In this document: in pieces, positions 5,883 through 18,554 of the stretch
How positions within the stretch are numbered: the stretch's first letter is position 1
Layout: every line of letters begins with the position of its first letter
Origin: Clostridia bacterium
GTDB lineage: Bacteria; Bacillota; Clostridia; Monoglobales; Monoglobaceae
NCBI GenBank assembly: GCA_045648565.1
Contig: JAZROF010000064.1
Coordinates: forward strand, 8,969 to 32,968
Length of the DNA: 24,000 nt
Reading direction: 5' to 3'
Position numbers and translations under genes: made by a program
Notes under the pieces: model-generated
Database searches by the model: none
What the model was told of the DNA's origin: nothing
The model's input: only the letters and a program-made list of their open reading frames with translations

Positions 5883-5889
5883 GAAGTGT

Positions 5890-5957: not shown

Positions 5958-5986
5958 TTGACATTACGGGGAAGCTGTGATAAAAT
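5958..5986 (+). promoter_or_regulatory. sigma-A type promoter for the 85-aa ORF
   Basis: TTGACA at 5958-5963, a 17-nt spacer, and TGaTAAAAT with TAAAAT at 5981-5986. Confidence 0.6.
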
Positions 5987-6014
5987 GAAATAAGATTTTT
6001 TTAGGAGGCGAAAA

Positions 6015-6272
6015 ATGATGTTTTTTGGAAGAAAGCATTCTTCAAATTCATCTAAAGATGCAAATAGCTTTGCACCTTGTTTTCGCAGTGCAAAAAAATC
6101 TTCTAAAGTTGCTAATACTTCAGGCATTGTTTTTTCAATGTCTGTTTTTTTATGTATAGCTCTATGCCTAATTATAGCTCTATGCCTAATTGATATTATA
6201 GGAATAGCTTTACTAAGCATTATAATTCTTGGGCTAAGTACGAAAAAGCAAACGGCAGGAAATACTTTTTAA
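6015..6272 (+). CDS. Small membrane protein (85 aa), hypothetical
   Basis: AGGAGG at 6003-6008 lies 6 nt upstream of the ATG. The gene has its own promoter and its own terminator. The N-terminal half is basic and Ser-rich, and the C-terminal half is Ile/Leu-rich and hydrophobic (VFLCIALCLIIALCLIDIIGIALLSIIILGL). I recognise no family. Confidence 0.6.
   Translation: MMFFGRKHSSNSSKDANSFAPCFRSAKKSSKVANTSGIVFSMSVFLCIALCLIIALCLIDIIGIALLSIIILGLSTKKQTAGNTF
6156..6191 (+). repeat. Perfect tandem duplication of the 18-bp unit ATAGCTCTATGCCTAATT (x2), in frame (IALCLI-IALCLI)
   Basis: Read directly: 6156-6173 is identical to 6174-6191. Confidence 0.95.
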
Positions 6273-6291
6273 AGTTAATTGACTTAAAGGT

Positions 6292-6325
6292 TGCGGTTTT
6301 GCTTTTTCGGCAAAACCGCATTTTA
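6292..6325 (+). terminator. Rho-independent terminator (possible attenuator ahead of the long operon)
   Basis: TGCGGTTTTGC (6292-6302) pairs with GCAAAACCGCA (6310-6320), with a 7-nt loop, followed by TTTTATGTTATTT. Confidence 0.75.
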
Positions 6326-6351
6326 TGTTATTTAAATGGCAGGAGGCTAAT

Positions 6352-7146
6352 ATGAATATTATAGATTTTCATTCACATATATATCCAGAAAAGATTGCTG
6401 AAAAAGCCGTGGAAAGCGTTGGCGAGTTCTATGGAGTAGATATGGACGGCAAGGGAACGGCAAAGACTCTTTTAAAAGAGGGTAAAAAGTGTGGAGTTAC
6501 AAATTATGTTGTTCACTCTGTTGCCCTTACTGCATCAAGAGTTGAGGCTATAAATGACTATATAGCTTCTGAGTGCAAAGCACATAAAGAGTTCCACGGT
6601 TTCGGGACAATGCACGCAGACTTTGAAAATAAAATTGAAGAAATAGAAAGAGCAAGAAAAATGGGGCTTTTGGGCGTTAAAATCCACCCCGATACCCAGC
6701 TTTTTAATATGGATGATAGGAGAATGTTTGAGCTTTATGACTACCTAAGACAGGAAAATATTCCTCTCCTAATCCACTGCGGAGACTATCGATATGATTA
6801 TTCACACCCAAGACGACTTAAAAAGCTCCTGCGTGAGTTCCCCGGGCTAACGGTTATCGGTGCCCACTTCGGAGGCTGGTCTATGTGTGATTTAGCTTAT
6901 GAATATCTGGCAAAAGAAAACTGCTATGTCGATACATCAAGCTCATTCTGGATGCTTGGGATGAAACGGGCAAAGGAGCTTATAAGACTATACGGAGCCG
7001 AGAGAGTTGTTTTCGGTTCGGACTTTCCTATGTGGAGTGTTTCAGAAGAGCTTGAAAGGTTTTTAAGTATGAAATTAACGGACGAAGAAAACAGTCTGAT
7101 TCTATATAAAAATGCTGAGAAGATTCTTAAAATTAAGGAGTGTTAA
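6352..7146 (+). CDS. Amidohydro_2-type TIM-barrel metal-dependent hydrolase
   Basis: Start chosen at MNIIDFHSHIYPEK, with AGGAGG 5 nt upstream. DFHSH near the N-terminus, IHCGD in the middle and GSDFP near the C-terminus are the metal-ligand pattern of this superfamily. Confidence 0.85.
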   Translation: MNIIDFHSHIYPEKIAEKAVESVGEFYGVDMDGKGTAKTLLKEGKKCGVTNYVVHSVALTASRVEAINDYIASECKAHKEFHGFGTMHADFENKIEEIERARKMGLLGVKIHPDTQLFNMDDRRMFELYDYLRQENIPLLIHCGDYRYDYSHPRRLKKLLREFPGLTVIGAHFGGWSMCDLAYEYLAKENCYVDTSSSFWMLGMKRAKELIRLYGAERVVFGSDFPMWSVSEELERFLSMKLTDEENSLILYKNAEKILKIKEC

Positions 7147-7148
7147 AA

Positions 7149-8564
7149 ATGACTGAGATTTTTATATCTGATATAACTTTAAGAGAAGAAGGAAAGCAGG
7201 GCGGATATGCCTTAAGCTTTAAAGAAAAAATAGAGGTTGCAAAAATTCTTGACAAGATAAATGTGTCTGTTATTGAAACTGCACCTATTAAAAACGGAAA
7301 AACTGATATTTTATATCTTCATTCCGTTGCACCTATTATTAAAAACAGCGTCCTCTCTTGCCCAGTTGGTCTTGACGTTGAGGCGGTAGAGAAAACCTAT
7401 GATGCAATTAAAGATGCAAAGAAACCAAGAATTCATATAATGGTTCCTGTGTCAACTGTCCAGATGGAATATATCTGCAACAAAAAGCCAAAGGCAGTTC
7501 TTGCCCTTTCTGAAGAAGTTATTAAAAAAGCAGTTTCTCTTTGCCCTGATGTTGAGGTTTCCTTAATGGACGCAACAAGAGCGGAAAAGGAATTCCTTTA
7601 TGAAATTATCGAAAAGGTAATTGATTGTGGAGCAAAGACCATAACAATATGCGACAGTGCGGGTGAAATGCTCCCATCTGAGTTTGAAAGCTTTTTAAAG
7701 GATTTATTTGACGCTGTTCCTAAAATGAAAGAAACCCAGGTTTCTGTTGAGTGCAGCGACTCTCTTAATATGGCAGCGGCTTGTGCCCTTTCTTGTATAG
7801 GCAGCGGAGTTACCCAAATTAAGACCTCTGTTGTTTCCCACGAATATCCCCGTCTTAGTGCGGTTGCAAAGGTATTCCGCGAAAAAGGGGACTCTCTCGG
7901 TGTTAAAACAGGAATAAATATGGCTGTTTTAGATAACAGCGTTAAGAAAATTAAGCTTATGACAAGGGGCGGAAATTCATATACACCGTTTGATAACGGA
8001 ACAAATACTACTGCCGAAAATATTGAGCTTTCTTCAAACGATGATATAGCATCAGTTAAACTTGCAGTTAAAAAGCTTGGCTATGACTTATCTGAAGAGG
8101 ATAATGCCAAGGTTTTTGATGAAGTTGTTAAGGCTTCAAAGAATAAAAAAGTTGGCTCAAAGGAGCTTGATGCAATCGTAGCCTCAGTTGCTATGCAGGT
8201 TATCCCTACATATAAGCTTAAGAGCTATGTTATAAACAACGGAAACATAATTACCCCAACCGCTCATATTGAGCTTGAAAGAGACGGGGAAGTGCTTCAG
8301 GGCTTTTGCATTGGGGACGGTCCTATTGATGCGGCGTTCCTTGCAATTGAGCAGATAACAGGCCACCACTTTGAGCTTGATGATTTTCAGGTTCAGGCTG
8401 TAACCGAGGGCCGTGGCGCTATGGGCTCAAGCATTGTAAAACTTCGCCACAACGGAAAGCCATTTTCCGGAAAAGGTATTTCAACTGATATTATCGGGGC
8501 AAGTATCAATGCTTATATAAACGCCCTTAACAAGATTTGCTTTGAAGAGGAGGATGAGAGATGA
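7149..8564 (+). CDS. 2-isopropylmalate synthase homolog with a degenerate catalytic domain and an intact LeuA-type C-terminal regulatory domain (probable pseudoenzyme)
   Basis: Collinear with LeuA over its full length. Three catalytic motifs are changed: LRDGEQ becomes LREEGKQ (7179-7199), HxHxD becomes ECSDS (7749-7763), and GERAGN becomes SHEYPRL. The C-terminal GDGPIDAAFLAIEQITG ... QAVTEGRGAMGSSIVKL...GKGISTDIIGASINAYINALNKI is well conserved. Start at the ATG at 7149, with AAGGAG 9 nt upstream. Confidence 0.8.
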   Translation: MTEIFISDITLREEGKQGGYALSFKEKIEVAKILDKINVSVIETAPIKNGKTDILYLHSVAPIIKNSVLSCPVGLDVEAVEKTYDAIKDAKKPRIHIMVPVSTVQMEYICNKKPKAVLALSEEVIKKAVSLCPDVEVSLMDATRAEKEFLYEIIEKVIDCGAKTITICDSAGEMLPSEFESFLKDLFDAVPKMKETQVSVECSDSLNMAAACALSCIGSGVTQIKTSVVSHEYPRLSAVAKVFREKGDSLGVKTGINMAVLDNSVKKIKLMTRGGNSYTPFDNGTNTTAENIELSSNDDIASVKLAVKKLGYDLSEEDNAKVFDEVVKASKNKKVGSKELDAIVASVAMQVIPTYKLKSYVINNGNIITPTAHIELERDGEVLQGFCIGDGPIDAAFLAIEQITGHHFELDDFQVQAVTEGRGAMGSSIVKLRHNGKPFSGKGISTDIIGASINAYINALNKICFEEEDER

Positions 8565-11023
8565 AATTATCCTTTTCCACAAACAAGTGGAACGATATAA
8601 CCCTTTCAGAGTTTTTCGACTTAGCAGGGGAATATAAGTTTGACGGAATAGAAATCCATGATGTTTCAAAGCTTAAAGAGGCGGATTTGAAAGACGCTCC
8701 TTGGCGAATGATAGAAAGCGGAATAAAAATTTCCTGTATCGACATGGTAAAGGATATTTCCAAAGAAAGGGATGAGGCAAAAAAAGAGCTTATAAGATGC
8801 CTTGAAGTTGCCGAAATTCTTAAAGCACCTTACATAAGACTTAAAGCTCTTTTAGAAGAAGGGGTTGAGGAGTTTTTAAGAGAGAACCTTTCTCTTGCAG
8901 AAGAAAAGGGAGTGGTTTTGCTTATTGAAACCGCAGGGGTTTATGCAGATACAGAAAAGCTCCGTGACCTTTTGACAAACTTTGCAAGTGATACTTTGGC
9001 GGCTTTATGGGATGTCCACTATCCATATAGAATGCATGGGGAAACTCCTGAAAAGTCAATTACAAATTTAGGCGCTTATGTAAAGCATATTCATATAAAG
9101 GACTCTGAAAGTCTTGAAACAAAAAGCCTTGTGGGCGAGGGCAACCTCCCTATCAATCAGTTTATGGAGGCCCTTAGAAGCGTAAACTATGACGGATTTT
9201 TCTCAATTGAGTGGAATCCTATTTGGGACGAAGAGATAAGCGAGGTTGATATAATATTTCCACACTTCGTAAGCTTTATGTCAAGATATAAAGGCTTATC
9301 AAGAGGAAAATCTGCTCTGTATGACAATAAAACAAAGACGGGAAAGTTTCCCTGGAAGAAAGATGCTCTTATTGAGAAAACCTTTTCTCAGGTTCTTGAT
9401 AAAATGGTTGAGGAATTCCCTGACCAATACGCATTTAAATATACAACTCTTGATTACACAAGAACATATTCACAGTTTCGGGACGATGTTGACACCTTTG
9501 CAAGAAGCTTAATGGCTATGGGTGTCCGCCCCGGGCACCACGTTGCAGTATGGGCAACAAATGTTCCTCAGTGGTACATAGCTTTCTGGGCGACAACAAA
9601 AATCGGAGCGGTTTTGGTTACAATGAACACCGCTTATAAAATCCACGAGGCAGAGTATCTTTTAAAGCAATCCGACACTCATACCCTTATTATGATTGAG
9701 GGGTATCGTGATTCCGATTATTCAGGAATTATTGCTGAGCTTTGTCCTGAACTTGAAAACACAAAAGAGGGAGAGCCTCTCCACGCAAAGAGACTTCCGT
9801 TCCTTCGAAATGTTATAACAGTGGGCTTTAAGCAAAAGGGCTGCACAACATGGGAAGAGGCAATTGATAAAGCGGACAGCGTTCCTCTTGATGAGGTTTT
9901 AAGAGTTGCATCAAAGGTTAATGTAAACGATGTCTGCAATATGCAGTATACATCAGGAACAACAGGCTTTCCGAAAGGGGTTATGCTTACCCACTATAAT
10001 ATAGTCAATAACGGTAAGTGTATCGGCGACAGAATGGATTTATCCACGGCAGACAGAATGATGATTCAGGTGCCAATGTTCCATTGTTTCGGTATGGTTC
10101 TTGCTATGACCGCAACAATGACTCACGGGGGAACACTCCTCCCACTTCCTTATTATTCTCCAAAGCCTGCCCTCTCTTGCGTAAATCAGGAGAGAATAAC
10201 CTGTTTCCACGGCGTTCCAACAATGTTTATTGCAATGCTTGAGCACCCTGATTTTGAAAAGACTGACTTTTCTTATATGAGAACGGGTATTATGGCTGGT
10301 TCTCCTTGTCCTGAGGCTATTATGAATCAGGTTGTTGAGAAAATGAATATGAAGGAAATCACAATTGTTTATGGCCAGACAGAAGCGTCTCCGGGTTGCA
10401 CAATGAGCAGTACGGACGACAGCATTGAAGTCAGAGTTACAACTGTTGGAAGAGCGCTCCCTGAAATTCAGTGTAAGATTGTTGACCCTGAAACCGGGGA
10501 AGACCTTCCTGATAATGTTACGGGCGAATTTGTTGCCAAAGGCTATAACATTATGAAAGGCTATTATAAAATGCCAGAGGCTACTGCGGCGGCAATTGAT
10601 AAAGACGGCTGGCTCCATACAGGAGACCTTGCACTTCGCACACCTGAGGGAAATTATAAGATAACAGGCAGACTTAAAGATATGATTATCCGTGGTGGAG
10701 AAAATATTTATCCGAAAGAAATTGAGGAATTTATTTATACCCACGAAAAAGTCAAGGATGTTCAGGTTATCGGTATTCCTGATGAGCAGTACGGCGAAGA
10801 AATTATGGCTGTTATAATCTTAAAAGACGGGGAAGAAATGACAGTTGATGAAATGAAAGATTATATAAGAGCGCATATGGCAAAGCATAAGTGCCCGAGA
10901 TATATTGATTTTGTCCAAGAATTCCCAATGAATGCGGCGGGCAAAATTCTTAAATATAAGATGCGTGAAGACGCGGCAAAGAAACTTAATATCAAGAAAG
11001 TTGACGGCATTGTTGCCGACTAG
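8561..11023 (+). CDS. Fusion protein: N-terminal xylose-isomerase-like TIM barrel (sugar-phosphate isomerase/epimerase fold, about aa 1-250) plus C-terminal AMP-forming acyl-CoA ligase (about aa 265-820)
   Basis: The N-terminus (LSFSTNKW..FDGIEIH...IRLKA...LLIET...HIHIKD...FSIEW) has the AP_endonuc_2/TIM pattern. The C-terminus has YTSGTTGFPKGVMLTH, YGQTE, GWLHTGD, RLKDMIIRGGENIYP and GKILK. It is a single uninterrupted frame, and its ATG overlaps the upstream stop (ATGA). Confidence 0.85.
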   Translation: MKLSFSTNKWNDITLSEFFDLAGEYKFDGIEIHDVSKLKEADLKDAPWRMIESGIKISCIDMVKDISKERDEAKKELIRCLEVAEILKAPYIRLKALLEEGVEEFLRENLSLAEEKGVVLLIETAGVYADTEKLRDLLTNFASDTLAALWDVHYPYRMHGETPEKSITNLGAYVKHIHIKDSESLETKSLVGEGNLPINQFMEALRSVNYDGFFSIEWNPIWDEEISEVDIIFPHFVSFMSRYKGLSRGKSALYDNKTKTGKFPWKKDALIEKTFSQVLDKMVEEFPDQYAFKYTTLDYTRTYSQFRDDVDTFARSLMAMGVRPGHHVAVWATNVPQWYIAFWATTKIGAVLVTMNTAYKIHEAEYLLKQSDTHTLIMIEGYRDSDYSGIIAELCPELENTKEGEPLHAKRLPFLRNVITVGFKQKGCTTWEEAIDKADSVPLDEVLRVASKVNVNDVCNMQYTSGTTGFPKGVMLTHYNIVNNGKCIGDRMDLSTADRMMIQVPMFHCFGMVLAMTATMTHGGTLLPLPYYSPKPALSCVNQERITCFHGVPTMFIAMLEHPDFEKTDFSYMRTGIMAGSPCPEAIMNQVVEKMNMKEITIVYGQTEASPGCTMSSTDDSIEVRVTTVGRALPEIQCKIVDPETGEDLPDNVTGEFVAKGYNIMKGYYKMPEATAAAIDKDGWLHTGDLALRTPEGNYKITGRLKDMIIRGGENIYPKEIEEFIYTHEKVKDVQVIGIPDEQYGEEIMAVIILKDGEEMTVDEMKDYIRAHMAKHKCPRYIDFVQEFPMNAAGKILKYKMREDAAKKLNIKKVDGIVAD

Positions 11024-11037
11024 AAAGGATGATAGAT

Positions 11038-12096
11038 ATGGAAATTAAAATTACAAAAACAACTACTCCGAAAGCAAAGCCAACAGGCAAACTTGGATTT
11101 GGTAAGGTTTTCACAGACCATATGTTCGTTATGAACTACACAGAGGGAAAGGGCTGGCACGATGCAAGAATCGTTCCTTATGATAAGATTACCCTTGACC
11201 CATCCGCTATGGTTTTCCATTACGGTCAGGAAATGTTTGAAGGCCTTAAGGCTTATATGGGAAAAGACGGTAAGGCAAGACTCTTCCGTCCTGATATGAA
11301 CGCAAAAAGAACAAACGCAACAAATAAGAGACTCTGCATTCCACAGCTTCCTGAGGAAGACTTTGTTGAGGCAGTTCGAGCAGTTGTTGAGGTTGATAAA
11401 GACTGGATTCCGACAGAAGACGGAACATCACTTTATATCAGACCATTCATTATTGCAACTGACGAATTTTTAGGGGTTGCCCCATCTAAGACATATCTTT
11501 TTATTATAATTCTTTCTCCAAGCGGTGCTTACTATGAAAGCGGTCTTGCTCCGGTTGGAATCTGGATTGAAGATGACTATGTTCGAGCTGTTAAGGGCGG
11601 TATCGGTTTTGCGAAAACTGGCGGAAACTATGCGGCATCACTCGCTGCTCAGGTTAAGGCTCATGACGACGGCTATTCTCAGGTTCTCTGGCTTGACGGC
11701 GTTGAGAGAAAGTATATTGAAGAAGTTGGCGCAATGAACATTTTCTTTAAGATTGACGGAAAAATCGTAACTCCTATGCTCAGCGGAAGTATCCTCCCTG
11801 GTATAACAAGAGATTCTGTTTTGGCTCTTTGCCGTCAGTGGGGTATGGAAGTTGAAGAAAGAAAGATAAGCGTTGATGAGCTTATTGAGGCTCAGAAGAG
11901 CGGCAGACTTGAAGAATGCTTCGGAACAGGCACAGCGGCAGTTATTTCTCCTGTTGGTAAGCTTCGCTATAAAGACGATGTTATGCTTATAAACAATAAC
12001 GAAATCGGCGAAGTAAGTCAGAAGCTCTATGATACAATAACAGGTATCCAGTGGGGCAAGATTGAGGACGAAAATAAATGGACATTAATGGTTTAA
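11038..12096 (+). CDS. ilvE: Branched-chain amino acid aminotransferase
   Basis: GFGKVFTDHMF, FHYGQEMFEGLKAY, LYIRPF, GGNYAASL and GITRDS are class-IV BCAT signatures. Start placed at the ATG at 11038 (RBS AAAGGA 8 nt upstream); the in-frame ATG at 11029 remains possible. Confidence 0.92.
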   Translation: MEIKITKTTTPKAKPTGKLGFGKVFTDHMFVMNYTEGKGWHDARIVPYDKITLDPSAMVFHYGQEMFEGLKAYMGKDGKARLFRPDMNAKRTNATNKRLCIPQLPEEDFVEAVRAVVEVDKDWIPTEDGTSLYIRPFIIATDEFLGVAPSKTYLFIIILSPSGAYYESGLAPVGIWIEDDYVRAVKGGIGFAKTGGNYAASLAAQVKAHDDGYSQVLWLDGVERKYIEEVGAMNIFFKIDGKIVTPMLSGSILPGITRDSVLALCRQWGMEVEERKISVDELIEAQKSGRLEECFGTGTAAVISPVGKLRYKDDVMLINNNEIGEVSQKLYDTITGIQWGKIEDENKWTLMV

Positions 12097-12773
12097 ACCC
12101 TAAAAGAATAACGGTTTTTGCAGGGCATTACGGAAGCGGAAAGACCAATATCGCAATAAATTATGCGTTAATGCTTTCCAAGAACAGCGATAAGGTTTCA
12201 ATTGCGGACCTTGATATTGTTAATCCGTATTTTCGGACAAAGGATTCGGCAAAGGCTCTTTCGGAGGCGGGAGTTAAGCTTATCTCCTCCGAATATGCAA
12301 ACACCAATGTTGACACTCCTGCTCTTCCTGCCGAGATTTATTCGGTTTTCGAGGATAAAAGTCAAACGGCGGTAATCGATGTTGGTGGGGATGACAGAGG
12401 TGCCCTTGCCCTCGGTAGATATGTTCCCTTTATGGAAGAAGAGGGGAATTATGAAATGCTCTTTGTTATAAACAAGCATAGATTTTTAACAGGGGATGCC
12501 GAAAGAACCATTGAGATTATGAAAGAAATTGAGAGTGCGGCAAAATTCGCATTCACGGGGATTGTCAATAACTCTAATATTGGAGAAGAAACAACAGCCC
12601 AAACAGTTTTAAACTCGGTTTCTTATGCAAAGGAGGTTTCGGCGCTGTCCGGACTTCCGATTAAAATGACAACTGTTAAAAGCTCCCTTTATGACGAGCT
12701 TAACGGCAAAATAGAAAACACTATGCCACTTGACCTTTATGTCCGGCAATCGTGGCTTAAAAACAAGGAATAA
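12078..12773 (+). CDS. P-loop NTPase (SIMIBI-class, MinD/GPN-like), cysteine-free
   Basis: Walker A GHYGSGKT, DLDIVNPYF, Walker B/G3-like AVIDVGGDD, and NKHR. The start overlaps the ilvE 3' end by 19 nt, with GAGGA 7 nt upstream. Confidence 0.75.
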   Translation: MDINGLNPKRITVFAGHYGSGKTNIAINYALMLSKNSDKVSIADLDIVNPYFRTKDSAKALSEAGVKLISSEYANTNVDTPALPAEIYSVFEDKSQTAVIDVGGDDRGALALGRYVPFMEEEGNYEMLFVINKHRFLTGDAERTIEIMKEIESAAKFAFTGIVNNSNIGEETTAQTVLNSVSYAKEVSALSGLPIKMTTVKSSLYDELNGKIENTMPLDLYVRQSWLKNKE

Positions 12774-12822
12774 AATAATGCTTATGGGGGTCATTCCCCG
12801 GCGGCTTAAGGAGGAAAAATAA

Positions 12823-13026
12823 ATGGCAAAGGTTACATTTAATGAAAATTTGTGTAAGGGTTGCGGACTTTGCGTAACTGCTTGTCCAAAGCATATTGTA
12901 GCACTTAAAGACACATTAAACGCAAAAGGCTATAGCCCGGCAGGGGTTACAGACCCTGAGGCTTGTATTGGTTGTGCGTTTTGCGCGACGATGTGCCCCG
13001 ACTGCGTTATAACAGTAGAAAAATAG
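12823..13026 (+). CDS. 2-oxoacid:ferredoxin oxidoreductase delta subunit (2x[4Fe-4S] ferredoxin)
   Basis: 67 aa with two motifs, CKGCGLCVTACP and CIGCAFCATMCP. RBS AAGGAGG. Confidence 0.9.
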   Translation: MAKVTFNENLCKGCGLCVTACPKHIVALKDTLNAKGYSPAGVTDPEACIGCAFCATMCPDCVITVEK

Positions 13027-13029
13027 GCT

Positions 13030-13124
13030 AAATTTTCCCTGAACACTTCGTTTTAAGCAAAACAAACCTCTCGCAGTATAAACGATACAGCTTCGGATTT
13101 GATTTGCTTAATCAGGAAAAATTT
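13030..13124 (+). other. Long imperfect intercistronic hairpin (about 95 nt) between the delta and alpha subunit genes
   Basis: AAATTTTCCCTGA (13030-13042) pairs with TCAGGAAAAATTT (13112-13124) at 12 of 13 positions. TTAAGCAAA (13053-13061) pairs with TTTGCTTAA (13103-13111) at 9 of 9. CAAACC (13063-13068) pairs with GGATTTG (13095-13101) with one bulge. There is a 10-nt bulge at 13043-13052. Confidence 0.4.
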
Positions 13125-13171
13125 CCCACTATTTTTGGAATAGCGAGATTTTCATAGAAAGGAAGAATAAA

Positions 13172-14239
13172 ATGAGTGAAAAAGTTTTAATGAAAGGTAA
13201 CGAAGCTTTGGCAGAAGCCGCTATTATGGCAGGTTGTCGTCATTACTTCGGTTATCCGATAACACCGCAGACAGAAGTTGCGGCATATATGTCAAAAAGA
13301 CTCCCTAAAATTGAGGGCGGAGTATTTTTGCAGGCAGAAAGTGAAGTTGCAGCCATCAATATGGTTATGGGCGTTGCTGCAACAGGTAAGAGGGTTATGA
13401 CATCCTCTTCAAGCCCGGGTATATCTTTAAAGAGTGAGGGTATTTCCTATATTGCAGGATGCGACCTCCCGGCGTTAATCGTTAATGTTCAGCGTGGCGG
13501 CCCAGGTCTTGGGGGTATCCAGCCAAGCCAGTCTGACTATACTCAGGCAACAAAAGGCCCTGGCCACGGGGATTTCAGACTTATCGTTTTAGCTCCTGCA
13601 TCAGTTCAGGAAATGGTTGATATGACAGTTAAGGGCTTTGACCTTGCTGATAAGTATCAGATGCCTGTTATGCTTTTATCTGACGGAACAATGGGCCAGA
13701 TGATGGAGCCTGTTTCTCTTGATATAAGCGAAGTTAAGACATACGAAAAGCCTTGGGCAGTGAATGGAACAAAGGGTGAGAGAAAGCCAAATATCGTAAA
13801 CTCTCTCTACTTAAAGCCTGACGAACTTGAAAAGGTTAACTTTGAAAGATATGAGCGCTATGCTAAAATCGAAGCAGAAGAAGCTCTTTGGGAAGAATAT
13901 AGGATGGATGACGCCGAAGTTTGTATTGTTGCATTCGGTGTTGCCGCAAGAGTTTCTCAGAACGCAATCGACAGAGCAAGAGAAAAGGGCATTAAGGTTG
14001 GTATGATAAGACCGATTACTCTTTGGCCATTCCCGAAAGAAGCACTTAAAAAGGCAAGTGAAAAGGTTAACAAGTTTATCTCTGTTGAGCTTAATATGGG
14101 CCAGATGATAGACGATATCCGTCTTGCAATTGAATGCAAAAAGGAAGTTCTCCTCTGCAACCGCACAGGCGGTATGATTCCGACAGTTGAGAATGTTCTT
14201 TCAAAAATTGACGAAGCTATAGAAGGAGGCAGAAAATAA
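13172..14239 (+). CDS. vorB: 2-oxoacid:ferredoxin oxidoreductase alpha subunit (VorB/KorA type)
   Basis: KGNEALAEAAIMAGCRHYFGYPITPQTE, LQAESEVAAINMV and GPGLG. The roughly 355-aa alpha subunit of four-subunit OFORs closely resembles the archaeal VorB-type sequence as I remember it. Substrate specificity is not provable by eye. Confidence 0.85.
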   Translation: MSEKVLMKGNEALAEAAIMAGCRHYFGYPITPQTEVAAYMSKRLPKIEGGVFLQAESEVAAINMVMGVAATGKRVMTSSSSPGISLKSEGISYIAGCDLPALIVNVQRGGPGLGGIQPSQSDYTQATKGPGHGDFRLIVLAPASVQEMVDMTVKGFDLADKYQMPVMLLSDGTMGQMMEPVSLDISEVKTYEKPWAVNGTKGERKPNIVNSLYLKPDELEKVNFERYERYAKIEAEEALWEEYRMDDAEVCIVAFGVAARVSQNAIDRAREKGIKVGMIRPITLWPFPKEALKKASEKVNKFISVELNMGQMIDDIRLAIECKKEVLLCNRTGGMIPTVENVLSKIDEAIEGGRK

Positions 14240-14982
14240 TGGCAGTAGTATTTGAAAAACCAAAGGGCTTAACTGATGCAGTTCTTCATTATTGCCCAGG
14301 TTGTACTCATGGTATTATTCATAGATTAGTTGCTGAAGCTTTAGATGAGCTTGGCGTAACAGACAGAGCAATTGGTGTTGCTCCTGTTGGATGCTCCGTT
14401 TTTGCTTATAACTATTTCAACTGCGATATGGTTCAGGCGGCTCACGGTCGTGCTCCGGCAGTTGCAACAGGTGTTAAACGCTCCGACCCTAATAATATTG
14501 TATTTACATATCAGGGTGACGGCGACCTTGCGGCTATCGGAACAGCTGAAACTGTTCACAGTGCAGCAAGAGGTGAAAACATTACAGTTATTTTCGTAAA
14601 CAACGCAATCTACGGTATGACAGGCGGACAGATGGCTCCAACAACCCTTCCGGGACAAATTACACAGACCTCTCCATACGGTAGAGATGTAGAAAAGGTT
14701 GGCTATCCTGTTAAGGTTTGCGAAATGCTTTCACAGGTTGACGGTGCAACTTATCTTGAAAGAGTTGCCGTAAACAATGTTAAGAATGTTAAAGCTGCAA
14801 AGGCTGCTATTAAGAAAGCGTTTAAGAATCAGATTGAAGGCAAGGGCTTCTCTTTAATCGAAGTTTTATCAACTTGTCCGACAAACTGGGGCCTTGCACC
14901 AACTAAGGCGATTGAGTGGCTTGAAGAAAATATGATGCCTTATTACCCACTTGGAGTATATAAGGACAAGACAGCGGAGTAA
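14239..14982 (+). CDS. 2-oxoacid:ferredoxin oxidoreductase beta subunit (TPP-binding)
   Basis: YCPGCTHG and GDGD...NNAIYGMTGGQ (TPP motif). Its ATG overlaps the alpha-subunit stop (TAATG). Confidence 0.9.
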   Translation: MAVVFEKPKGLTDAVLHYCPGCTHGIIHRLVAEALDELGVTDRAIGVAPVGCSVFAYNYFNCDMVQAAHGRAPAVATGVKRSDPNNIVFTYQGDGDLAAIGTAETVHSAARGENITVIFVNNAIYGMTGGQMAPTTLPGQITQTSPYGRDVEKVGYPVKVCEMLSQVDGATYLERVAVNNVKNVKAAKAAIKKAFKNQIEGKGFSLIEVLSTCPTNWGLAPTKAIEWLEENMMPYYPLGVYKDKTAE

Positions 14983-14995
14983 GGAGGAAAAGAAA

Positions 14996-15532
14996 ATGAA
15001 TAAAGAAATACTTATTGCAGGCTTTGGCGGACAGGGTATTTTATTCTCCGGAAAGTTCCTTGCCTATGGCGGTCTTATCGACGGAAAAGAAGTTTCCTGG
15101 CTCCCGTCTTATGGTCCTGAAATGCGTGGCGGCACAGCCAATTGCAGTATCATTTTAAGCGATAATAAAATCGGCTCTCCAATCGTTGATAAGCCGGATG
15201 TTTTAATCGCAATGAATGCTCCGTCTTTTGACAAGTATATAACAGAAGTAAAGTCAGGCGGAATGGCTATTGTTGATAGCTCACTCATTGATAAAAAGAG
15301 CGAAAGAGACGATGTTGAGGCATATTATATTCCTGCAACCCGTCTTGCATCAGAAGAAGGTCTTACAGGCCTTGCAAATATGATTATTTTAGGTCTTTTC
15401 CTTAAAAAGACCAACCTTATGACTGACGAGCTTATCGAGGCGGTTATGAAGAAGATTGTTCCGGCTAAAAAGCCACAGCTTTATGACCTTAATATGAAAG
15501 CTATTCAATTAGGTTATAACTACGAAGCGTAA
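14996..15532 (+). CDS. 2-oxoacid:ferredoxin oxidoreductase gamma subunit
   Basis: Start chosen at MNKEILIAGFGGQGILFSGK, with AGGAGG 8 nt upstream. SYGPEMRGG is typical of gamma subunits. The track's start at 14951 overlaps the beta subunit. Confidence 0.9.
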   Translation: MNKEILIAGFGGQGILFSGKFLAYGGLIDGKEVSWLPSYGPEMRGGTANCSIILSDNKIGSPIVDKPDVLIAMNAPSFDKYITEVKSGGMAIVDSSLIDKKSERDDVEAYYIPATRLASEEGLTGLANMIILGLFLKKTNLMTDELIEAVMKKIVPAKKPQLYDLNMKAIQLGYNYEA

Positions 15533-15554
15533 TAAAAAAAGGAGGTTTAAGATT

Positions 15555-16106
15555 ATGAACGAACAGATTAAAGATATTGGTATGCGTCTTGCAACTCTTC
15601 GTGATGATATGGAAATTTCTGCTTGTGAAATGGCCGAGAAGCTTGGGGTTAGTGAAGATATTTATATGGCGTATGAAAAAGGAGAAATGGACTTTTCGTT
15701 TAGCTTAATTTATAAGGCTGCCGAAATTCTTGGCGTTGATATTCTTGACCTGATAAGCGGCAGCGCGCCAACAATTTCTATGTGTTGTATGGTTAAAAAG
15801 GGCAAAGGCTTTTCTGTTAAAAGAGAAGATGAATATGACTATAAGCATCTTGCCTATACATTCAGAAACAAAAAGGCAGAGCCATTTTTAGTAACTATTC
15901 ACCCTGACGAAAAAACACCGGTTATGCACGCCCACGACGGTCAGGAATTCAACTATGTCATATCAGGCAAAATGATACTTTACATAGGCGATATTTCCTA
16001 TGAACTTTCAGAGGGCGACAGTGTTTATTTTGATGCAAGCGTGCCTCACGCCGAGGTGGCGCTTGGAGACAAAGAAGCACAATTTATCGCCGTTGTTATG
16101 AAATAA
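15555..16106 (+). CDS. XRE-family HTH plus cupin-domain transcriptional regulator
   Basis: The N-terminus IGMRLATLRDDMEISACEMAEKLGVSEDIYMAYEKG is an XRE-type HTH. The C-terminus HAHDGQEFNYVISG...GDSVYFDASVPH is a cupin motif. Confidence 0.85.
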   Translation: MNEQIKDIGMRLATLRDDMEISACEMAEKLGVSEDIYMAYEKGEMDFSFSLIYKAAEILGVDILDLISGSAPTISMCCMVKKGKGFSVKREDEYDYKHLAYTFRNKKAEPFLVTIHPDEKTPVMHAHDGQEFNYVISGKMILYIGDISYELSEGDSVYFDASVPHAEVALGDKEAQFIAVVMK

Positions 16107-16134
16107 GACAGAAAAAATTTAGAGGTGATAAAAA

Positions 16135-17820
16135 ATGGCAATATATGAAAAATTTGTGGGTGCAACGAGGGATGATTTTATCTCACTTAAAGATGCCCAG
16201 AAAAACTATACGCTAAGCTACAACGATGATTTTAACTTCGCTTATGATGTTGTTGACGAGCTTGGCAAAACAAAACCCGATAAGCTGGCTATGCTTTGGG
16301 TTTCAAAGGACGGCGAAGAAAAGAGATTTACTTTCGCCGATATGATGTATTATTCAAATAAAGCGGCAAGTTACTTTAACTATATGGGAATTCGCAAGGG
16401 CGACAAGGTTATGCTTGTTTTAAAGAGAAGCTATTATTTCTGGTTCTGTATTTTAGGGCTTCATAAAATCGGAGCAGTTGTTGTTCAGGCGACCAATATG
16501 CTTAAAGCGAAAGATTATGTCTATCGGTGCAACGCAGGAAAAATAAAGGCTGTTGTTGTGACGGGAGACGGAATGGAAACTGAGTATTTTGACGAGGGCG
16601 AAGGACAATACGAAACAATCGAAAAGAAATTCGTTCTTGGTCATAAAAAAGCAGGAGATGACTGGATTGACTTTGAAGCGGGTTTTGAACTTGCTAACCC
16701 TGACTGGCAAAGACCAACAGGGGACCAGGCGGTTATGGCGGACGATATGATGCTTATGGCGTTCTCTTCAGGAACATCAGGCTATCCGAAAATCATTACC
16801 CATAACTTTAAATACCCTCTCGGTCATATTATGACTGGTGTGTTCTGGCACAGAGTTATTGATGGCGGACTTCATTTTACAATTTCCGACACAGGCTGGC
16901 TCAAATCCCTCTGGGGCAAGATTTACGGCCAGTGGTTCGGGGAAAGTGCGGTTTTGGTTTATGATTTTGACAAGTTTGACGCAAAGGATATTTTAAGCAA
17001 ACTTGAAAAATACAAAGTAACAACTTTCTGCGTTCCGCCGACTATGTATAGAATGCTTCTTGAAAACGATGTAAGTAAGTATGATTTATCTTCTCTTACT
17101 CATTGCTGCACAGCAGGAGAGGCATTAAACCCTGAAATCTATAATAACTGGCTTAAAGCCACAGGGCTTAAGCTTTACGAGGGTTTTGGTCAGACCGAAA
17201 CAACCCTTTGTATAGCGACAATTTATCCTTGGTCAGAGCCAAATCCTGGGGCAATCGGCTTCCCTGTTCCGGGCTATGATGTGCATATTTTAGGAGAGGA
17301 CGGAGAGTCCTGCCCAAGAGGTGCAACAGGGGAAATCTGTATAAGAGTGTTAAGTCAGGCACGTAAAACCTGCGGACTTTTGGATACTTATAATTTCAGC
17401 GAGGAGGATACAAAAAAAGCCCTCCACGATGGTTTTTATCATACGGGGGACACAGCGTATCGCGACGAAAAGGGAACTTTCTGCTATGTTGGACGAAATG
17501 ATGATGTTATTAAATCCTCAGGTTACAGAATCGGGCCTTTTGAAATTGAAAGCGTTATGCTTGAACATCCTGCGGTAAAGGAAGTTGCGGTAACAGGTGT
17601 TCCTGACCCAATCCGTGGTTTTGCGGTTAAGGCAACGGTTGTTCTTTCGGATAAATACTTCCCGTCAGATGAACTTACAAAAGAGCTTCAAAAGTATGTT
17701 AAGGATAACACAGCACCATATAAATACCCGAGAGTGGTTGAATATGTTGATGCTCTTCCAAAAACCTTTAACGGTAAAATAAGAAGAAGCGAAATACGCG
17801 ACAAAGATACATTGGTATAA
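16135..17820 (+). CDS. AMP-forming medium/short-chain acyl-CoA synthetase (MACS/ACSM-like)
   Basis: FNFAYDVVD, FSSGTSGYPK, YEGFGQTE, YHTGD and SSGYRIGPFEIES, with the C-terminal NGKIRR catalytic Lys motif. Confidence 0.85.
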   Translation: MAIYEKFVGATRDDFISLKDAQKNYTLSYNDDFNFAYDVVDELGKTKPDKLAMLWVSKDGEEKRFTFADMMYYSNKAASYFNYMGIRKGDKVMLVLKRSYYFWFCILGLHKIGAVVVQATNMLKAKDYVYRCNAGKIKAVVVTGDGMETEYFDEGEGQYETIEKKFVLGHKKAGDDWIDFEAGFELANPDWQRPTGDQAVMADDMMLMAFSSGTSGYPKIITHNFKYPLGHIMTGVFWHRVIDGGLHFTISDTGWLKSLWGKIYGQWFGESAVLVYDFDKFDAKDILSKLEKYKVTTFCVPPTMYRMLLENDVSKYDLSSLTHCCTAGEALNPEIYNNWLKATGLKLYEGFGQTETTLCIATIYPWSEPNPGAIGFPVPGYDVHILGEDGESCPRGATGEICIRVLSQARKTCGLLDTYNFSEEDTKKALHDGFYHTGDTAYRDEKGTFCYVGRNDDVIKSSGYRIGPFEIESVMLEHPAVKEVAVTGVPDPIRGFAVKATVVLSDKYFPSDELTKELQKYVKDNTAPYKYPRVVEYVDALPKTFNGKIRRSEIRDKDTLV

Positions 17821-17857
17821 AACAAAAAGAGAGATGAAAAATCTCTCTTTTTGTTTT
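17819..17857. terminator. Bidirectional rho-independent terminator
   Basis: AACAAAAAGAGAGAT (17821-17835) pairs with ATCTCTCTTTTTGTT (17841-17855) around a 5-nt loop, between convergent genes. Confidence 0.85.
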
Positions 17858-18554
17858 ATAAGAATAATGAAGCAATAACTGTTAAAAGTCCGCAAAGACC
17901 GATTGCGATACCGCTCATTGCTCCCTCGGTTCTTCCAAGTTTAATTGCCTGGGTTGTTCCAAGAGCGTGGCAGGAAGCTCCAATTCCAAGTCCTGCGGCA
18001 ACGGAGTTGTCGATTTTAAACCACTTTATAAAGTATGGGCACATAATCGCCCCGAAAAGTCCTGTAACAAAAACCGCTGCTGATGCAATGGGGGCGTATC
18101 CACCAATTTTTTCTGCAAGAGGCATTGCAATAGCCGTCGTAACTGATTTTGGGATAAGGGATTTAGTGATTGCCTCATCAATTCCAAAAAATCTGCAAAG
18201 GAGAAGAACTGATGCAACAGAAACAATGACTCCGACAATAGTTCCAGCCAAAATAGGAAGAAGATTTTTAATTATAAGGTCACGCTTTTCATACATTGAA
18301 ACCGCCAAAGCTGCCGTTGCAGGAGGGAGGAACAAAAGAATTATATTTCCACCCGAGCTGAAATTTTCAATTGGAATTTTCAAGCAGTAATAAAAAATCC
18401 AAAGAAAAATGACGCTGATTATTAAAGGGTTTACAATTGGTTTATCATATCTTTTTGCTATAAGCTTAGCAAAATAAAAGAAAATAAGAGCAAGAGTAAC
18501 GCCGAAAATCGAAGACTTTGAAAGCTTAAGAATTTCTTCATATATATTATACAT
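17856..18554 (-). CDS. lrgB: LrgB/CidB family membrane protein
   Basis: 232-aa polytopic membrane protein with LrgB-like segments (PLIISVIFL, LLPPATAALAV, SLIPKSVTTAIAM, ASCHALGT). It overlaps the upstream lrgA-like gene by 8 nt. Confidence 0.85.
   Translation of the reverse strand: MYNIYEEILKLSKSSIFGVTLALIFFYFAKLIAKRYDKPIVNPLIISVIFLWIFYYCLKIPIENFSSGGNIILLFLPPATAALAVSMYEKRDLIIKNLLPILAGTIVGVIVSVASVLLLCRFFGIDEAITKSLIPKSVTTAIAMPLAEKIGGYAPIASAAVFVTGLFGAIMCPYFIKWFKIDNSVAAGLGIGASCHALGTTQAIKLGRTEGAMSGIAIGLCGLLTVIASLFL

Follow-up and report, generated by a model that had tools for sequence, protein, structure and literature searches.

A gene cluster for probable salvage of leucine, isoleucine and valine from branched volatile fatty acids in a Clostridia bacterium

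Layout of the cluster and its leader

The analysed DNA (the window, 24,000 nt) carries eleven + strand genes at 6352-17820. The co-directional packing claimed in the original prediction was reproduced by the ORF listing of the window at every gene and junction, and Pfam and NCBIfam agreed with its domain content (two ligases, an IlvE-type aminotransferase, a four-subunit 2-oxoacid:ferredoxin oxidoreductase (OFOR) and others). The genes, the evidence for each and the junction to the next gene were as follows.

6352-7146, +, Amidohydro_2, metal-dependent hydrolase/decarboxylase-like (Pfam, E 8e-33); 2-nt gap
7149-8564, +, LeuA-like, HMGL-like and LeuA_dimer domains (Pfam, NCBIfam); 4-nt overlap
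8561-11023, +, LigA fusion, AP_endonuc_2 and AMP-binding domains (Pfam, NCBIfam); 14-nt gap
11038-12096, +, IlvE, branched-chain aminotransferase, class IV type II (NF009897, 511 bits, cut-off 307); 19-nt overlap
12078-12773, +, P-loop NTPase, Walker A GHYGSGKT (weak ParA/CbiA-type match); 49-nt gap
12823-13026, +, OFOR delta subunit (VorD), 2x[4Fe-4S] ferredoxin-like (NCBIfam); 145-nt gap
13172-14239, +, OFOR alpha subunit, POR_N and PFOR_II domains, NCBIfam 'VorB' (NF005507, 544 bits, cut-off 399); 1-nt overlap
14239-14982, +, OFOR beta subunit, TPP-binding (Pfam, NCBIfam); 13-nt gap
14996-15532, +, OFOR gamma subunit (Pfam, NCBIfam); 22-nt gap
15555-16106, +, XRE-cupin, XRE-type HTH_3 and Cupin_2 domains (Pfam); 28-nt gap
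16135-17820, +, LigB, MACS/MbcS-type short branched-chain acyl-CoA ligase, AMP-binding (PDB, NCBIfam, tree)

The cluster is bracketed by a strong hairpin upstream (6292-6320) and a terminator-like hairpin downstream (17825-17853). The flanking features were as follows.

5958-5986, +, sigma-70-like promoter, TTGACA-17-TAAAAT with a TG extension (11/12 matches)
6015-6272, +, leader ORF of 85 codons with an AGGAGG ribosome-binding site (ORF listing)
6241-6252, +, putative antiterminator 5' strand (CGAAAAAGCAAA), 100% complementary to 6298-6309 (inverted repeat)
6292-6320, +, intrinsic terminator/attenuator hairpin, 12-bp stem then TTTTATGT (terminator scan, inverted repeat)
17825-17853, no strand assigned, hairpin AAAAAGAGAGAT-loop-ATCTCTCTTTTT, then GTTTT, directly after the last stop codon (sequence reading)

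Within the cluster the terminator scan gave weak hairpins only, none with a T tract, in line with the earlier claim that internal terminators are absent. The hairpin total (17) was near that expected from shuffles (12.0, sd 4.2). The downstream hairpin was found by reading the sequence and was not called by the consensus scan; it is probably a bidirectional terminator common to the cluster and the convergent lrgB gene. The true boundaries lie slightly beyond 6352-17820, at the promoter, leader and flanking hairpins. The original prediction, whose region began at 6352, had overlooked the upstream regulatory leader.

The element at 5958-5986 was the sole good promoter candidate for the operon and lies downstream of the aspartate-kinase terminator (5890-5916). 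The leader ORF encodes a Cys-containing, polar N-terminal half and an Ile/Leu-rich tail (of the final 50 residues, 11 are Ile and 9 are Leu). Homologues were found at the equivalent position in L003, L005, L006, L007, L009, L011, L015, L017, L021, L046 and L087 (locus labels). The strand at 6241-6252 sits within the final codons of the ORF, and its duplex with 6298-6309 was calculated at -17.2 kcal/mol (z = -3.8 against shuffles). The terminator, 32 nt 5' of the first gene, overlaps the antiterminator target, so that the two pairings are mutually exclusive; its left arm GCGGTTTTGCTTTT is kept in relatives. Equivalent pairing was present in 12/12 loci of this leader type, and the duplexes in L003, L007, L009 and L015 were not better than shuffles (z -0.6 to -1.5). 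The ORF is a candidate regulatory leader peptide, whose translation would probably decide between antiterminator and terminator. Against attenuation, an ORF of 85 codons greatly exceeds classical leader peptides in length, and its product could instead be a small membrane protein, the terminator then being that gene's own.

Conservation and the accessory proteins

Species-representative genomes with the LeuA-like gene number at least 580; they are from gut and rumen anaerobes and span several phyla. Neighbourhoods were surveyed at 82 related loci, and members were counted in the 60 that were well covered. The LeuA-like gene has as recurrent neighbours IlvE, the P-loop protein, VorDABG, XRE-cupin and the second ligase (IlvE 25/60, P-loop 30/60, VorD 30/60, VorA 28/60, XRE-cupin 34/60, LigB 31/60), and Amidohydro_2 was present in 15/60. 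Conservation applies either to the whole set or to modules that recombine. The full 11-gene order was kept in L003, L005 and L086, a PFOR-like protein lies directly 3' of LigA in 7 loci, and in L001, L018 and L027 IorAB is encoded close to LigA on the other strand.

This survey, proposed with the original prediction, showed that the gene set is not unique to this genome. Since it recurs in dozens of genomes, its juxtaposition is not due to chance. Eleven genes brought together from unrelated operons might be suspected from the 145-nt spacer between vorD and vorA and from the recombination of modules (Amidohydro_2 moves, VOR is replaceable, LigB copy number varies). This reading is effectively refuted by the identical order in several genomes that share 60-74% identity in the LeuA-like protein and by the co-occurrence of modules in dozens of loci across phyla; internal terminators were also not found.

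The LeuA-like protein retains the fold of isopropylmalate synthase (IPMS) together with the allosteric domain of LeuA. Every member has lost subdomain I and the catalytic metal site, in agreement with the earlier description of a dead IPMS homolog. Residues vary at the D/H/H metal-ligand positions (E/Q/K; E/S/Q/R; S), E/S/Q-x-S stands in place of HxH, the GERAGN motif is gone and a deletion has removed the HESGIHQDG subdomain. Conservation is highest in the regulatory domain (column identity averages 0.74, compared with 0.54 in the barrel). An isopropylmalate or citramalate synthase that has diverged and is still active, with leucine T-boxes marking ordinary leucine biosynthesis and an incidental ligase link, would fit the best NCBIfam matches (LeuA equivalogs), the structural matches (IPMS, MAM, homocitrate synthase) and the T-box(Leu) control typical of leu genes in Firmicutes. 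It is very improbable given the lost or variable catalytic motifs, including the metal Asp, and a score of 296 bits where the cut-off is 532. Nor do leuB/C/D travel with the gene, as the 82 loci held no recurrent family beyond the cluster's own genes (leuB/C/D were not queried by name). Its fixed neighbour is the ligase: the TIM-barrel/ligase fusion lies directly 3', its start codon overlapping the LeuA-like stop codon, in 78/79 evaluable loci. In the leucine branch the TIM-ligase has the LeuA-like protein as an obligate partner, and we propose that the latter may serve as a leucine sensor for LigA, a pairing likened to HisZ acting on HisG.

LigA consists of a xylose-isomerase-like TIM barrel (~residues 1-260) followed by an ACSF2/PRK12583-like AMP-forming acyl-CoA ligase (NCBIfam NF009233, 700 bits, below the cut-off of 832). 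No characterised close relative using isovalerate was found. The TIM-domain metal ligands E123/D151/H178/E217 (E-D-H-E) are kept in the window and in ~78% of the family, which hints at a catalysis that the salvage model does not need. In one subclade they are replaced by K/N/R/A and the fusion is retained.

Amidohydro_2 carries an N-terminal HxH motif (DFHSHIYP), and the structures closest to it are BB4693, which is uncharacterised, and decarboxylases of the LigW/ACMSD type. Its position varies among loci, and it also occurs in L087, a cluster lacking the Leu module. It is an optional cluster member with no part in the salvage scheme.

The LeuA-like protein, TIM domain and Amidohydro_2 could alternatively be real enzymes and not regulators, catalysing an unrecognised leucine-specific step such as the formation or repair of the ligase substrate or the 2-oxoacid, with the remaining pathway as proposed below. 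In L069, L070 and L075, for instance, all three stand under a Leu T-box. The TIM domain, with its canonical ligands, folds like ketose 3-epimerases, which deprotonate beside a 2-keto group; the LeuA-like protein has invariant polar residues (D8, E43, S102, E136, D141, R144, D169, K225); and Amidohydro_2 has HxH as a candidate metal motif. We regard this as possible though unlikely: the subclade with substituted TIM ligands is still fused, no LeuA-like member has kept the metal site or subdomain I, Amidohydro_2 is missing from three quarters of loci, and the sequence isovalerate, isovaleryl-CoA, 2-oxoisocaproate, leucine is complete with no extra step.

The P-loop protein always lies directly 5' of VorD in the locus maps, with equal counts (30 and 30) in well-covered loci, and is probably an assembly or maturation factor of the oxidoreductase. 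In many relatives the HTH and cupin domains form the N-terminal part of the ligase itself (fusions of 750-800 aa); XRE-cupin is thus a dedicated partner of LigB. Adjacency, fusions and co-occurrence now place the LeuA-like, XRE-cupin and P-loop genes, to which no role had previously been given; Amidohydro_2 is still unexplained.

T-boxes and ligase assignment

T-boxes in related loci were taken from Rfam calls above the gathering score. All parsed T-boxes before LeuA-like/TIM-ligase genes (21/21) specified Leu (CUG or CUC). Those before LigB-type genes specified Ile (12 AUC) or Val (5 GUA or GUC), and the Ile and Val leaders fell in separate clades of the MACS/MbcS-type ligase tree. Window LigB forms a sister clade to these Ile-T-box and Val-T-box paralogs. 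The window was searched for a T-box and none was found. Some other loci have leader peptides of 30-39 codons, e.g. ANILLLIAIIILAII, 5' of a conserved terminator.

T-boxes induce genes when the cognate tRNA is uncharged. Leaders of this kind before ligase genes in relatives point to both the direction (anabolic) and the branch (Leu, Ile, Val) of the pathway. If the product were instead branched acyl-CoA, with IlvE and VOR running oxidatively and the ligases priming branched-chain membrane fatty acids, or the cluster serving branched-chain amino acid fermentation, induction by uncharged tRNA would be counter-productive, because a scarce amino acid would be degraded. OFORs are reversible, and P-loop/VOR units probably exist in fermentative clusters too; in S. 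aureus, MbcS, which is the best NCBIfam family of LigB, functions in lipid priming (PMC10026030, PMC11167679). This direction is nevertheless improbable, as AMP-forming ligases do not conserve energy, neither ptb/buk nor an ADP-forming synthetase was found in the window or the 82 loci, and no recurring fab genes were found nearby.

LigB matched PDB 3etc, an AMP-binding protein of Methanosarcina acetivorans, with 649 bits (E 6.8e-194); we take 3etc to be the 2-methylbutyrate-using Macs of that organism. M. acetivorans Macs uses 2-methylbutyrate (PMC10455477). The MbcS score of LigB was 411.6 bits, below the cut-off of 850. MbcS activates 2-methylbutyrate and isobutyrate, and isovalerate is a poor substrate (PMC10026030), which would explain a separate ligase type for leucine. 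From these similarities LigB is proposed to activate 2-methylbutyrate and isobutyrate, and LigA, by its Leu-specific leaders in relatives, to be the isovalerate-CoA ligase of the leucine branch.

Proposed salvage pathway

The cluster probably directs a starvation-induced salvage synthesis of leucine, isoleucine and valine from isovalerate, 2-methylbutyrate and isobutyrate. The route from branched acid through acyl-CoA and 2-oxoacid to amino acid, as originally predicted, is supported by the conserved gene set, the T-boxes and the match of LigB to 3etc. Exogenous branched volatile fatty acids would first be activated by the two AMP-forming ligases, LigA feeding isovalerate into the leucine branch and LigB feeding 2-methylbutyrate and isobutyrate into the isoleucine and valine branches. 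The acyl-CoAs would then be reductively carboxylated by the VOR-type four-subunit OFOR and its P-loop companion with reduced ferredoxin as donor, and the 2-oxoacids transaminated by IlvE.

Leucine feedback on LigA may be conferred by the LeuA-like protein, and XRE-cupin may be the sensor or regulator module of LigB, the counterpart of LeuA-like for LigA; any regulatory role of the TIM domain is likewise conjectural. Expression would be tied to amino-acid demand by Leu, Ile and Val T-boxes in relatives and, in the window, by the putative attenuator. Related loci in hundreds of species reveal a link to amino-acid starvation, and the accessory genes can be sorted by branch.

Gene content, borders and recurrence of the cluster

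The eleven + strand genes at 6352-17820, with all predicted gaps and overlaps between them, were reproduced exactly in an ORF listing, and the domain calls of the original prediction were upheld by Pfam and NCBIfam for the cluster proteins. Terminator-like hairpins inside the cluster were weak and near shuffle expectation. The true borders were located just outside the first and last genes.

Features of the cluster and its borders
5890-5916, terminator of the aspartate kinase gene, upstream of the cluster's control region (hairpin scan)
5958-5986, + strand, promoter-like site
6015-6272, + strand, leader ORF of 85 codons with a good ribosome-binding site
6292-6320, + strand, 12-bp terminator hairpin, ending 32 nt upstream of the first gene
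6352-7146, + strand, Amidohydro_2 protein (Pfam/NCBIfam)
7149-8564, + strand, HMGL-like + LeuA_dimer protein, termed LeuA-like (Pfam E 5e-38 and 9e-33)
8561-11023, + strand, AP_endonuc_2 TIM barrel fused to an AMP-binding ligase, termed LigA or TIM-ligase (Pfam/NCBIfam)
11038-12096, + strand, aminotransferase IlvE (NF009897, 511 bits, cut-off 307)
12078-12773, + strand, P-loop protein of 231 aa (weak ParA/CbiA similarity only)
12823-13026, + strand, 2x[4Fe-4S] delta subunit of the 2-oxoacid:ferredoxin oxidoreductase (OFOR), 67 aa (Pfam/NCBIfam)
13172-15532, + strand, alpha, beta and gamma subunits of the OFOR (alpha: NCBIfam NF005507 'VorB', 544 bits, cut-off 399)
15555-16106, + strand, HTH_3 + Cupin_2 protein, termed XRE-cupin (Pfam/NCBIfam)
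16135-17820, + strand, second AMP-binding ligase, termed LigB (Pfam/NCBIfam)
17825-17853, hairpin AAAAAGAGAGAT/ATCTCTCTTTTT directly after the last stop codon, common to the cluster and the convergent lrgB

The hom-thrB-aspartate kinase operon of the threonine branch is located directly upstream (2571-5882, with its own terminator at 5890-5916), and a DUF1015 protein is encoded at about 1229-2545. In the close relative L005 (L numbers denote the related loci compared), DUF1015 and homoserine dehydrogenase genes are also near, but on the other strand. Downstream, lrgB and lrgA (17856-18975, - strand) converge on the cluster, followed by rpmH (19648-19782), rnpA, yidC and jag at 19648-22232 (+ strand), genes characteristically found around the replication origin. 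Over the window, cumulative GC skew rose monotonically, giving no switch. The vorD-vorA spacer (13027-13171) is 145 nt, unusually long between delta and alpha OFOR genes, and holds an inverted repeat (approximately 13124-13148) which was scored as terminator-like on the - strand; the corresponding spacer is 177 nt in L005 and 13 nt in L003.

Homologs of the LeuA-like protein numbered thousands in a protein search. The closest 120, 56-93% identical and from Clostridia and Oscillospiraceae MAGs, were labelled 'hypothetical protein' by NCBI, and 'hypothetical protein [Clostridia bacterium]' was also the name given to members of the 93%-identical cluster. With each GTDB species represented by a single genome, a scan gave at least 580 carrier genomes. 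Among the matches listed, carriers were nearly all uncultured rumen or gut anaerobes, mostly Clostridia (Oscillospiraceae, Acutalibacteraceae, Christensenellaceae, Lachnospiraceae, Faecousia); Lentisphaeria, Thermoguttaceae, Abditibacteriota, Spirochaetales and Coriobacteriia were also represented, and a cultured carrier was Erysipelotrichaceae bacterium NK3D112 (L058).

For the neighbourhood survey the window's proteins were mapped onto 82 non-redundant loci. Presence and absence were counted by tblastn, since ORF calling was misled by antisense frames where loci were GC-rich (clusters c9, c13-c15). In counts drawn from the best 80 of at least 580 loci, which therefore lean towards the window's relatives, the TIM-ligase directly followed the LeuA-like gene in 78 of 79 evaluable loci, and the 60 loci flanked by 9 kb or more contained IlvE (25), P-loop protein (30), VorD (30), VorA (28), XRE-cupin (34), second ligase (31) and Amidohydro_2 (15). 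Identity to the window's proteins over the loci was 65-93% for the ligase domain, 38-81% for the LeuA-like protein and 27-73% for the TIM domain. The complete 11-gene order was found again in L003, L005 and L086; the survey proposed with the original prediction thus places the full order beyond this genome.

Parts of the cluster behave as modules. L087 carries the leader ORF, Amidohydro_2, IlvE, P-loop, VorDABG, XRE-cupin and LigB genes without the LeuA-like/TIM-ligase pair, and in L001, L018 and L027 the LeuA-like, TIM-ligase, IlvE and Amidohydro_2 genes sit beside an IorAB/PaaK/ACT unit. A PFOR-type enzyme of 1170-1210 aa is encoded directly after the TIM-ligase in seven loci (L034, L044, L053, L060, L062, L063, L068), and stands in for VorDABG beside the ligase in Lentisphaeria, Coriobacteriia and some Lachnospiraceae. 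A Glu/Leu/Phe/Val-dehydrogenase-like gene takes the place of IlvE in L061 (13887-14924). In L058, the locus of the cultured carrier, the LeuA-like/TIM-ligase pair is accompanied by two HTH-cupin-ligase fusions and by the beginning of a P-loop/VOR unit. The recurring theme across loci is a ligase, some OFOR and an aminating enzyme.

Predicted pathway and its probable control by amino-acid demand

The cluster would act by acid activation, followed by ferredoxin-dependent carboxylation of the acyl-CoA and then transamination. This route from branched acid through acyl-CoA and 2-oxoacid to amino acid, as originally proposed, was supported by the VOR-type alpha subunit and IlvE, both of which pass their NCBIfam cut-offs, the delta, beta and gamma subunits also being encoded; both ligases fell below equivalog cut-offs. 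LigB matched PDB 3etc, an AMP-binding protein of M. acetivorans which we take to be the Macs that uses 2-methylbutyrate, with 649 bits (E 6.8e-194). Its best NCBIfam family was MbcS (NF047394) at 411.6 bits, under the curated cut-off of 850, so that by sequence LigB belongs to the broader MACS subfamily and is not an MbcS equivalog. LigA is ACSF2/PRK12583-like and TIM-fused, scoring 700 bits, below the NCBIfam equivalog cut-off.

MbcS activates 2-methylbutyrate and isobutyrate and hardly isovalerate (PMC10026030), M. acetivorans Macs takes 2-methylbutyrate (PMC10455477), and both favour alpha-branched acids (PMC10026030, PMC10455477); a separate type of ligase is therefore expected for the leucine branch. 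The TIM-fused ACSF2/PRK12583-like enzyme, the one under leucine control in related loci, is the probable candidate. No bacterial isovalerate-CoA ligase of this type was found described in the searchable literature. Substrates, flux, complex formation and attenuation are throughout what we infer from sequence, gene context and analogy.

T-box leaders scoring above the Rfam gathering threshold were found in related loci. All loci were scanned for T-box sequence and Stem I geometry, and specifiers were read by a rule-based parse (codon, next base usually purine, 4-bp helix, one base, GAG) compared with the Rfam consensus columns; 18 hits were unparsable and lie outside the parsed set. Directly upstream of the LeuA-like gene, 21/21 parsed T-boxes carried CUG or CUC (Leu). 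Upstream of MACS-type ligase genes, 12 carried AUC (Ile) and 5 GUA or GUC (Val). Two 'Gly' specifier calls were rejected as mis-parses, one of them sitting in the Val clade of the ligase tree. By neighbour joining, the MACS-type ligases fell into three clades, corresponding to the Ile-T-box enzymes, the Val-T-box enzymes and the window's unfused enzyme.

All three specificities occur within one locus in L031, L036-L039, L041, L042, L057-L059, L069, L070 and others, the Leu T-box being located before the LeuA-like/TIM-ligase pair, the Ile T-box before the first of two HTH-cupin-ligases and the Val T-box before the other. The Leu and Ile T-boxes of L042 are divergently oriented, with only ∼160 nt between them. 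Other RNA elements near the cluster in relatives were a THF riboswitch (L039, 7597-7697), a Gut-1 sRNA (L059, 1296-1371) and, ∼430 nt upstream of the LeuA-like gene on the opposite strand, a c-di-GMP-I riboswitch (L060, 9495-9568, - strand).

A T-box switches its gene on when the cognate tRNA is uncharged, and the ligases would therefore be induced by lack of one specific branched-chain amino acid. Such control, as read from the leader sequences, fits synthesis and not degradation. Leu, Ile or Val T-boxes precede the ligase genes in orthologous loci; the window itself carries a candidate attenuator only. Rfam reported neither a T-box (RF00230) nor another riboswitch, whether at the gathering score over the 24 kb or in a permissive search of 5850-6400 that admitted hits to E = 10. 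An L20-leader hit (25.7 bits, threshold 58.7) was discarded as the terminator hairpin only.

The 85-codon leader ORF encodes 11 Ile and 9 Leu in its last 50 residues. Within its final codons, CGAAAAAGCAAA (6241-6252) is a perfect 12-nt complement of 6298-6309, a target that overlaps the left arm and loop of the terminator stem (6292-6302 / 6310-6320). The duplex was calculated at -17.2 kcal/mol (z = -3.8 against shuffles). Homologous ORFs of 77-114 codons, with a FAPC/S..SA motif and an Ile/Leu-rich tail in common, were found upstream of the cluster in eleven other loci, each followed by a terminator with a conserved left arm, GCGGTTTTGCTTTT, and each with an upstream complement. Equivalent terminator/antiterminator pairings were present in 12/12 loci of this leader type, four of which were no better than shuffles.

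The leader of the window is a candidate leader-peptide attenuator in place of the T-box of its relatives. Its ORF is long for such a leader, at 85 codons against 14-32 in classical cases and 30-39 in the short version of relatives, and leader-peptide attenuation is unusual in Clostridia; alternatively, the ORF may encode a small membrane protein and the terminator may belong to that gene. Also within this region, an imperfect inverted repeat (5992-6014 / 6080-6102, 78% complementary) spans the ribosome-binding site of the leader ORF, and a ∼19-nt tandem duplication (agctctatgcctaatt...) at 6156-6192, read by eye, encodes IALCLI twice; the repeat search, at its settings, reported no direct-repeat family.

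Loci with neither a T-box nor a long leader ORF have leader peptides of 30-39 codons upstream of the LeuA-like operon, for example MNMSAFFTANILLLIAIIILAIIKQDKNSAVCRVLR and MLKFAMFNLINLLSAILCLLSLNGKNSAICRV, with Ile/Leu runs and a conserved C-terminus NSA(V/I)CRV.

Short leader peptides (locus, coordinates)
L016, 7641-7748
L018, 9795-9893
L027, 9210-9329
L047, 319-417
L050, 9728-9841
L073, 2522-2632
L076, 7573-7683
L077, 9783-9893
L079, 9799-9903

Downstream of these peptides come a conserved RNA element, AATAGCGCTGTTTGTCGTG, and a terminator. Inspection showed AATAGCG to be the reverse complement of CGCTATT, the Ile-codon stretch in the short-leader loci, and CUGUUUGUCGUG to be able to pair, mainly by G-U, with the terminator at its left arm and loop. 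As predicted from sequence, these pairings form the classical 1:2 / 2:3 / 3:4 layout. Since a T-box, a long leader ORF or a short leader peptide is located upstream of the operon, the three appear to be interchangeable devices for sensing branched-chain amino-acid supply at one position.

The LeuA-like protein, the TIM domain and the accessory genes

The fold of the LeuA-like protein matched isopropylmalate synthase (IPMS) structures (AF2 model, pLDDT 83). Compared with N. meningitidis IPMS, DTTLRDGEQ is replaced by DITLREEGKQ and HCHND by ECSDS, and the GERAGN motif and HESGIHQDG subdomain (subdomain I) are absent, either deleted or replaced; pLDDT of the model falls below 50 at residues 274-290. 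Over 76 family members the three metal-ligand positions vary (E/Q/K/M; E/S/Q/R; S), and the regulatory domain is best kept, with a mean column identity of 0.74 against 0.54 for the barrel. The curated equivalog cut-off was failed (best 296.6 bits against 532). The prediction of a dead IPMS homolog therefore holds: with metal ligands and catalytic subdomain I lost and the regulatory domain conserved, the protein is dead as a Claisen-condensing enzyme yet under strong selection. HMG-CoA-lyase-type or reverse-Liu chemistry was considered and rejected on account of the lost metal site.

By analogy with HisZ and HisG, the LeuA-like protein may give leucine feedback on the first, ATP-consuming step, a role that we put forward tentatively. 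It is suggested by the retained regulatory domain, by the Leu T-boxes, by its constant place beside the ligase gene, whose start codon overlaps the LeuA-like stop codon, and by the HTH-cupin sensor module holding the equivalent place in the Ile and Val units.

The TIM domain of LigA matched PF01261 (68.5 bits, cut-off 31.1; model pLDDT 93.6). Foldseek returned ketose 3-epimerases (TM about 0.75) and generic sugar epimerases and isomerases at 14-21% identity. The modelled resemblance to xylose-isomerase-like barrels is generic only and gives no functional assignment. The window has the E-D-H-E metal ligands, as do ∼78% of members; about 20% of the family have lost them, and a subclade has K/N/R/A in their place. 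When the TIM domain was used in a word-indexed search, all hits were truncated pieces of the fusion; standalone relatives, found by exhaustive profile search, are ∼265-270 aa, score ∼200 bits to the profile and retain E-D-H-E. One of these (L089, 367-1176) lies beside a GT2/GtrA glycosyltransferase on a 3.6-kb contig, a single and uninformative context. The domain may serve as a docking platform or as an enzyme. A keto-acid C3 epimerase for the isoleucine branch was rejected, as the pair is under Leu T-boxes and 2-oxoisocaproate is without a C3 stereocentre.

HTH and cupin domains were found fused N-terminally to the MACS-type ligase in many genomes, as proteins of 750-800 aa (HTH_3/HTH_19 + Cupin_2 + AMP-binding).

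HTH-cupin-ligase fusions (locus, coordinates)
L058, 14296-16557
L058, 16806-19196
L039, 14221-16617
L086, 195-2480, - strand

By this Rosetta-stone fusion the XRE-cupin would be the dedicated partner of that ligase and not a generic regulator. The accessory genes had been described as without a role; this still applies to Amidohydro_2, which is optional, shifts position among loci and had distant decarboxylase matches only in a PDB sequence search, but not to the XRE-cupin. The P-loop protein is encoded directly upstream of VorD throughout and contains GxxGSGKT Walker A and DVGGDD motifs; its PDB matches were at Walker-A level only, and that it matures the Fe-S/TPP enzyme is a guess.

Relation to known systems and significance

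Allison and co-workers reportedly established that rumen and gut anaerobes reductively carboxylate isovalerate, isobutyrate and 2-methylbutyrate to Leu, Val and Ile; this classical work is said to have dealt with fluxes and activities, not genes. The cluster predicts the same three steps in carriers that are likewise rumen and gut anaerobes, and adds genes, a T-box partition and accessory proteins. The original prediction that the combination maps onto no described system was borne out in the searchable literature, where no description was found of the conserved gene organisation, the one-ligase-per-amino-acid T-box partition, the obligate LeuA pseudoenzyme/TIM-ligase pairing, the HTH-cupin-ligase fusions or the leader-peptide variants; the chemistry, however, is the long-known rumen reductive carboxylation. 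Each catalytic component is from a known family, and this is not a categorically new system.

LigB is similar in sequence to MbcS (Staphylococcus aureus) and Macs (Methanosarcina acetivorans), but is tied to VOR, IlvE and amino-acid T-boxes instead of lipid priming, and has an HTH-cupin partner. The OFOR has the delta, alpha, beta and gamma subunits of the four-subunit VOR/KOR enzymes (vorDABG; the anabolic VOR of methanogens), from which it differs in being constantly preceded by the 231-aa P-loop protein. The LeuA-like protein shares with LeuA the fold, LeuA_dimer and the GDGPIDA motif of the regulatory domain, and its relatives are under Leu T-boxes; unlike LeuA, it is without metal ligands and subdomain I, is paired with a ligase and does not have leuBCD among its recurrent neighbours. 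HisZ is a catalytically dead HisRS paralog which makes the short-form ATP-phosphoribosyltransferase HisG histidine-sensitive. The LeuA-like protein may follow the same logic, as a pseudoenzyme derived from an end-product-binding enzyme and encoded beside the first committed, ATP-consuming step, the likeness being one of analogy only.

Control of ilv-leu in Bacillus subtilis is by a T-box, and that of ilvGMEDA, ilvBN and leu in E. coli by leader-peptide attenuation. Some relatives of the cluster use Leu, Ile and Val T-boxes; in others, and probably in the window, control is by I/L-rich leader ORFs and alternative terminator/antiterminator pairings; in contrast to those operons, the genes here are of a salvage route and not the de novo pathway. 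BirA is a bifunctional adenylating enzyme and repressor. Relatives likewise fuse an HTH DNA-binding domain to an adenylate-forming ligase, but the folds differ, and in the window HTH-cupin and ligase are separate genes.

A fuller scheme would be a modular branched-chain amino-acid salvage system with its own sensor per ligase, in which the dead LeuA docks via the TIM barrel to give a leucine-sensitive LigA, the HTH-cupin couples 2-methylbutyrate and isobutyrate ligases to transcription, and the three branches are gated separately by Leu, Ile and Val T-boxes or, in some lineages, by Ile/Leu-rich leader-peptide attenuators. As a whole this scheme is less probable than not. Were it to hold, ANL ligases with allosteric equipment would form a new class, and Clostridia would offer a rare instance of attenuation by leader peptide.

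Branched short-chain fatty acids are plentiful products of protein fermentation in gut and rumen, and are needed by some fibre-degrading bacteria. To our knowledge, the genes for re-using these acids in amino-acid synthesis have not been pinned down. The signature of LeuA-like + TIM-ligase, HTH-cupin-ligases and P-loop-VOR-IlvE, present in hundreds of mostly uncultured species, could predict branched-acid cross-feeding from metagenomes, and the T-box specifiers give each ligase a likely amino-acid branch, and hence substrate, without biochemistry. NK3D112 is a cultured host usable for experiments. In the LeuA-derived pseudoenzyme there is a concrete candidate for feedback regulation of a new kind, and the system is of solid interest for gut and rumen microbiologists and for researchers of pseudoenzymes and attenuation.
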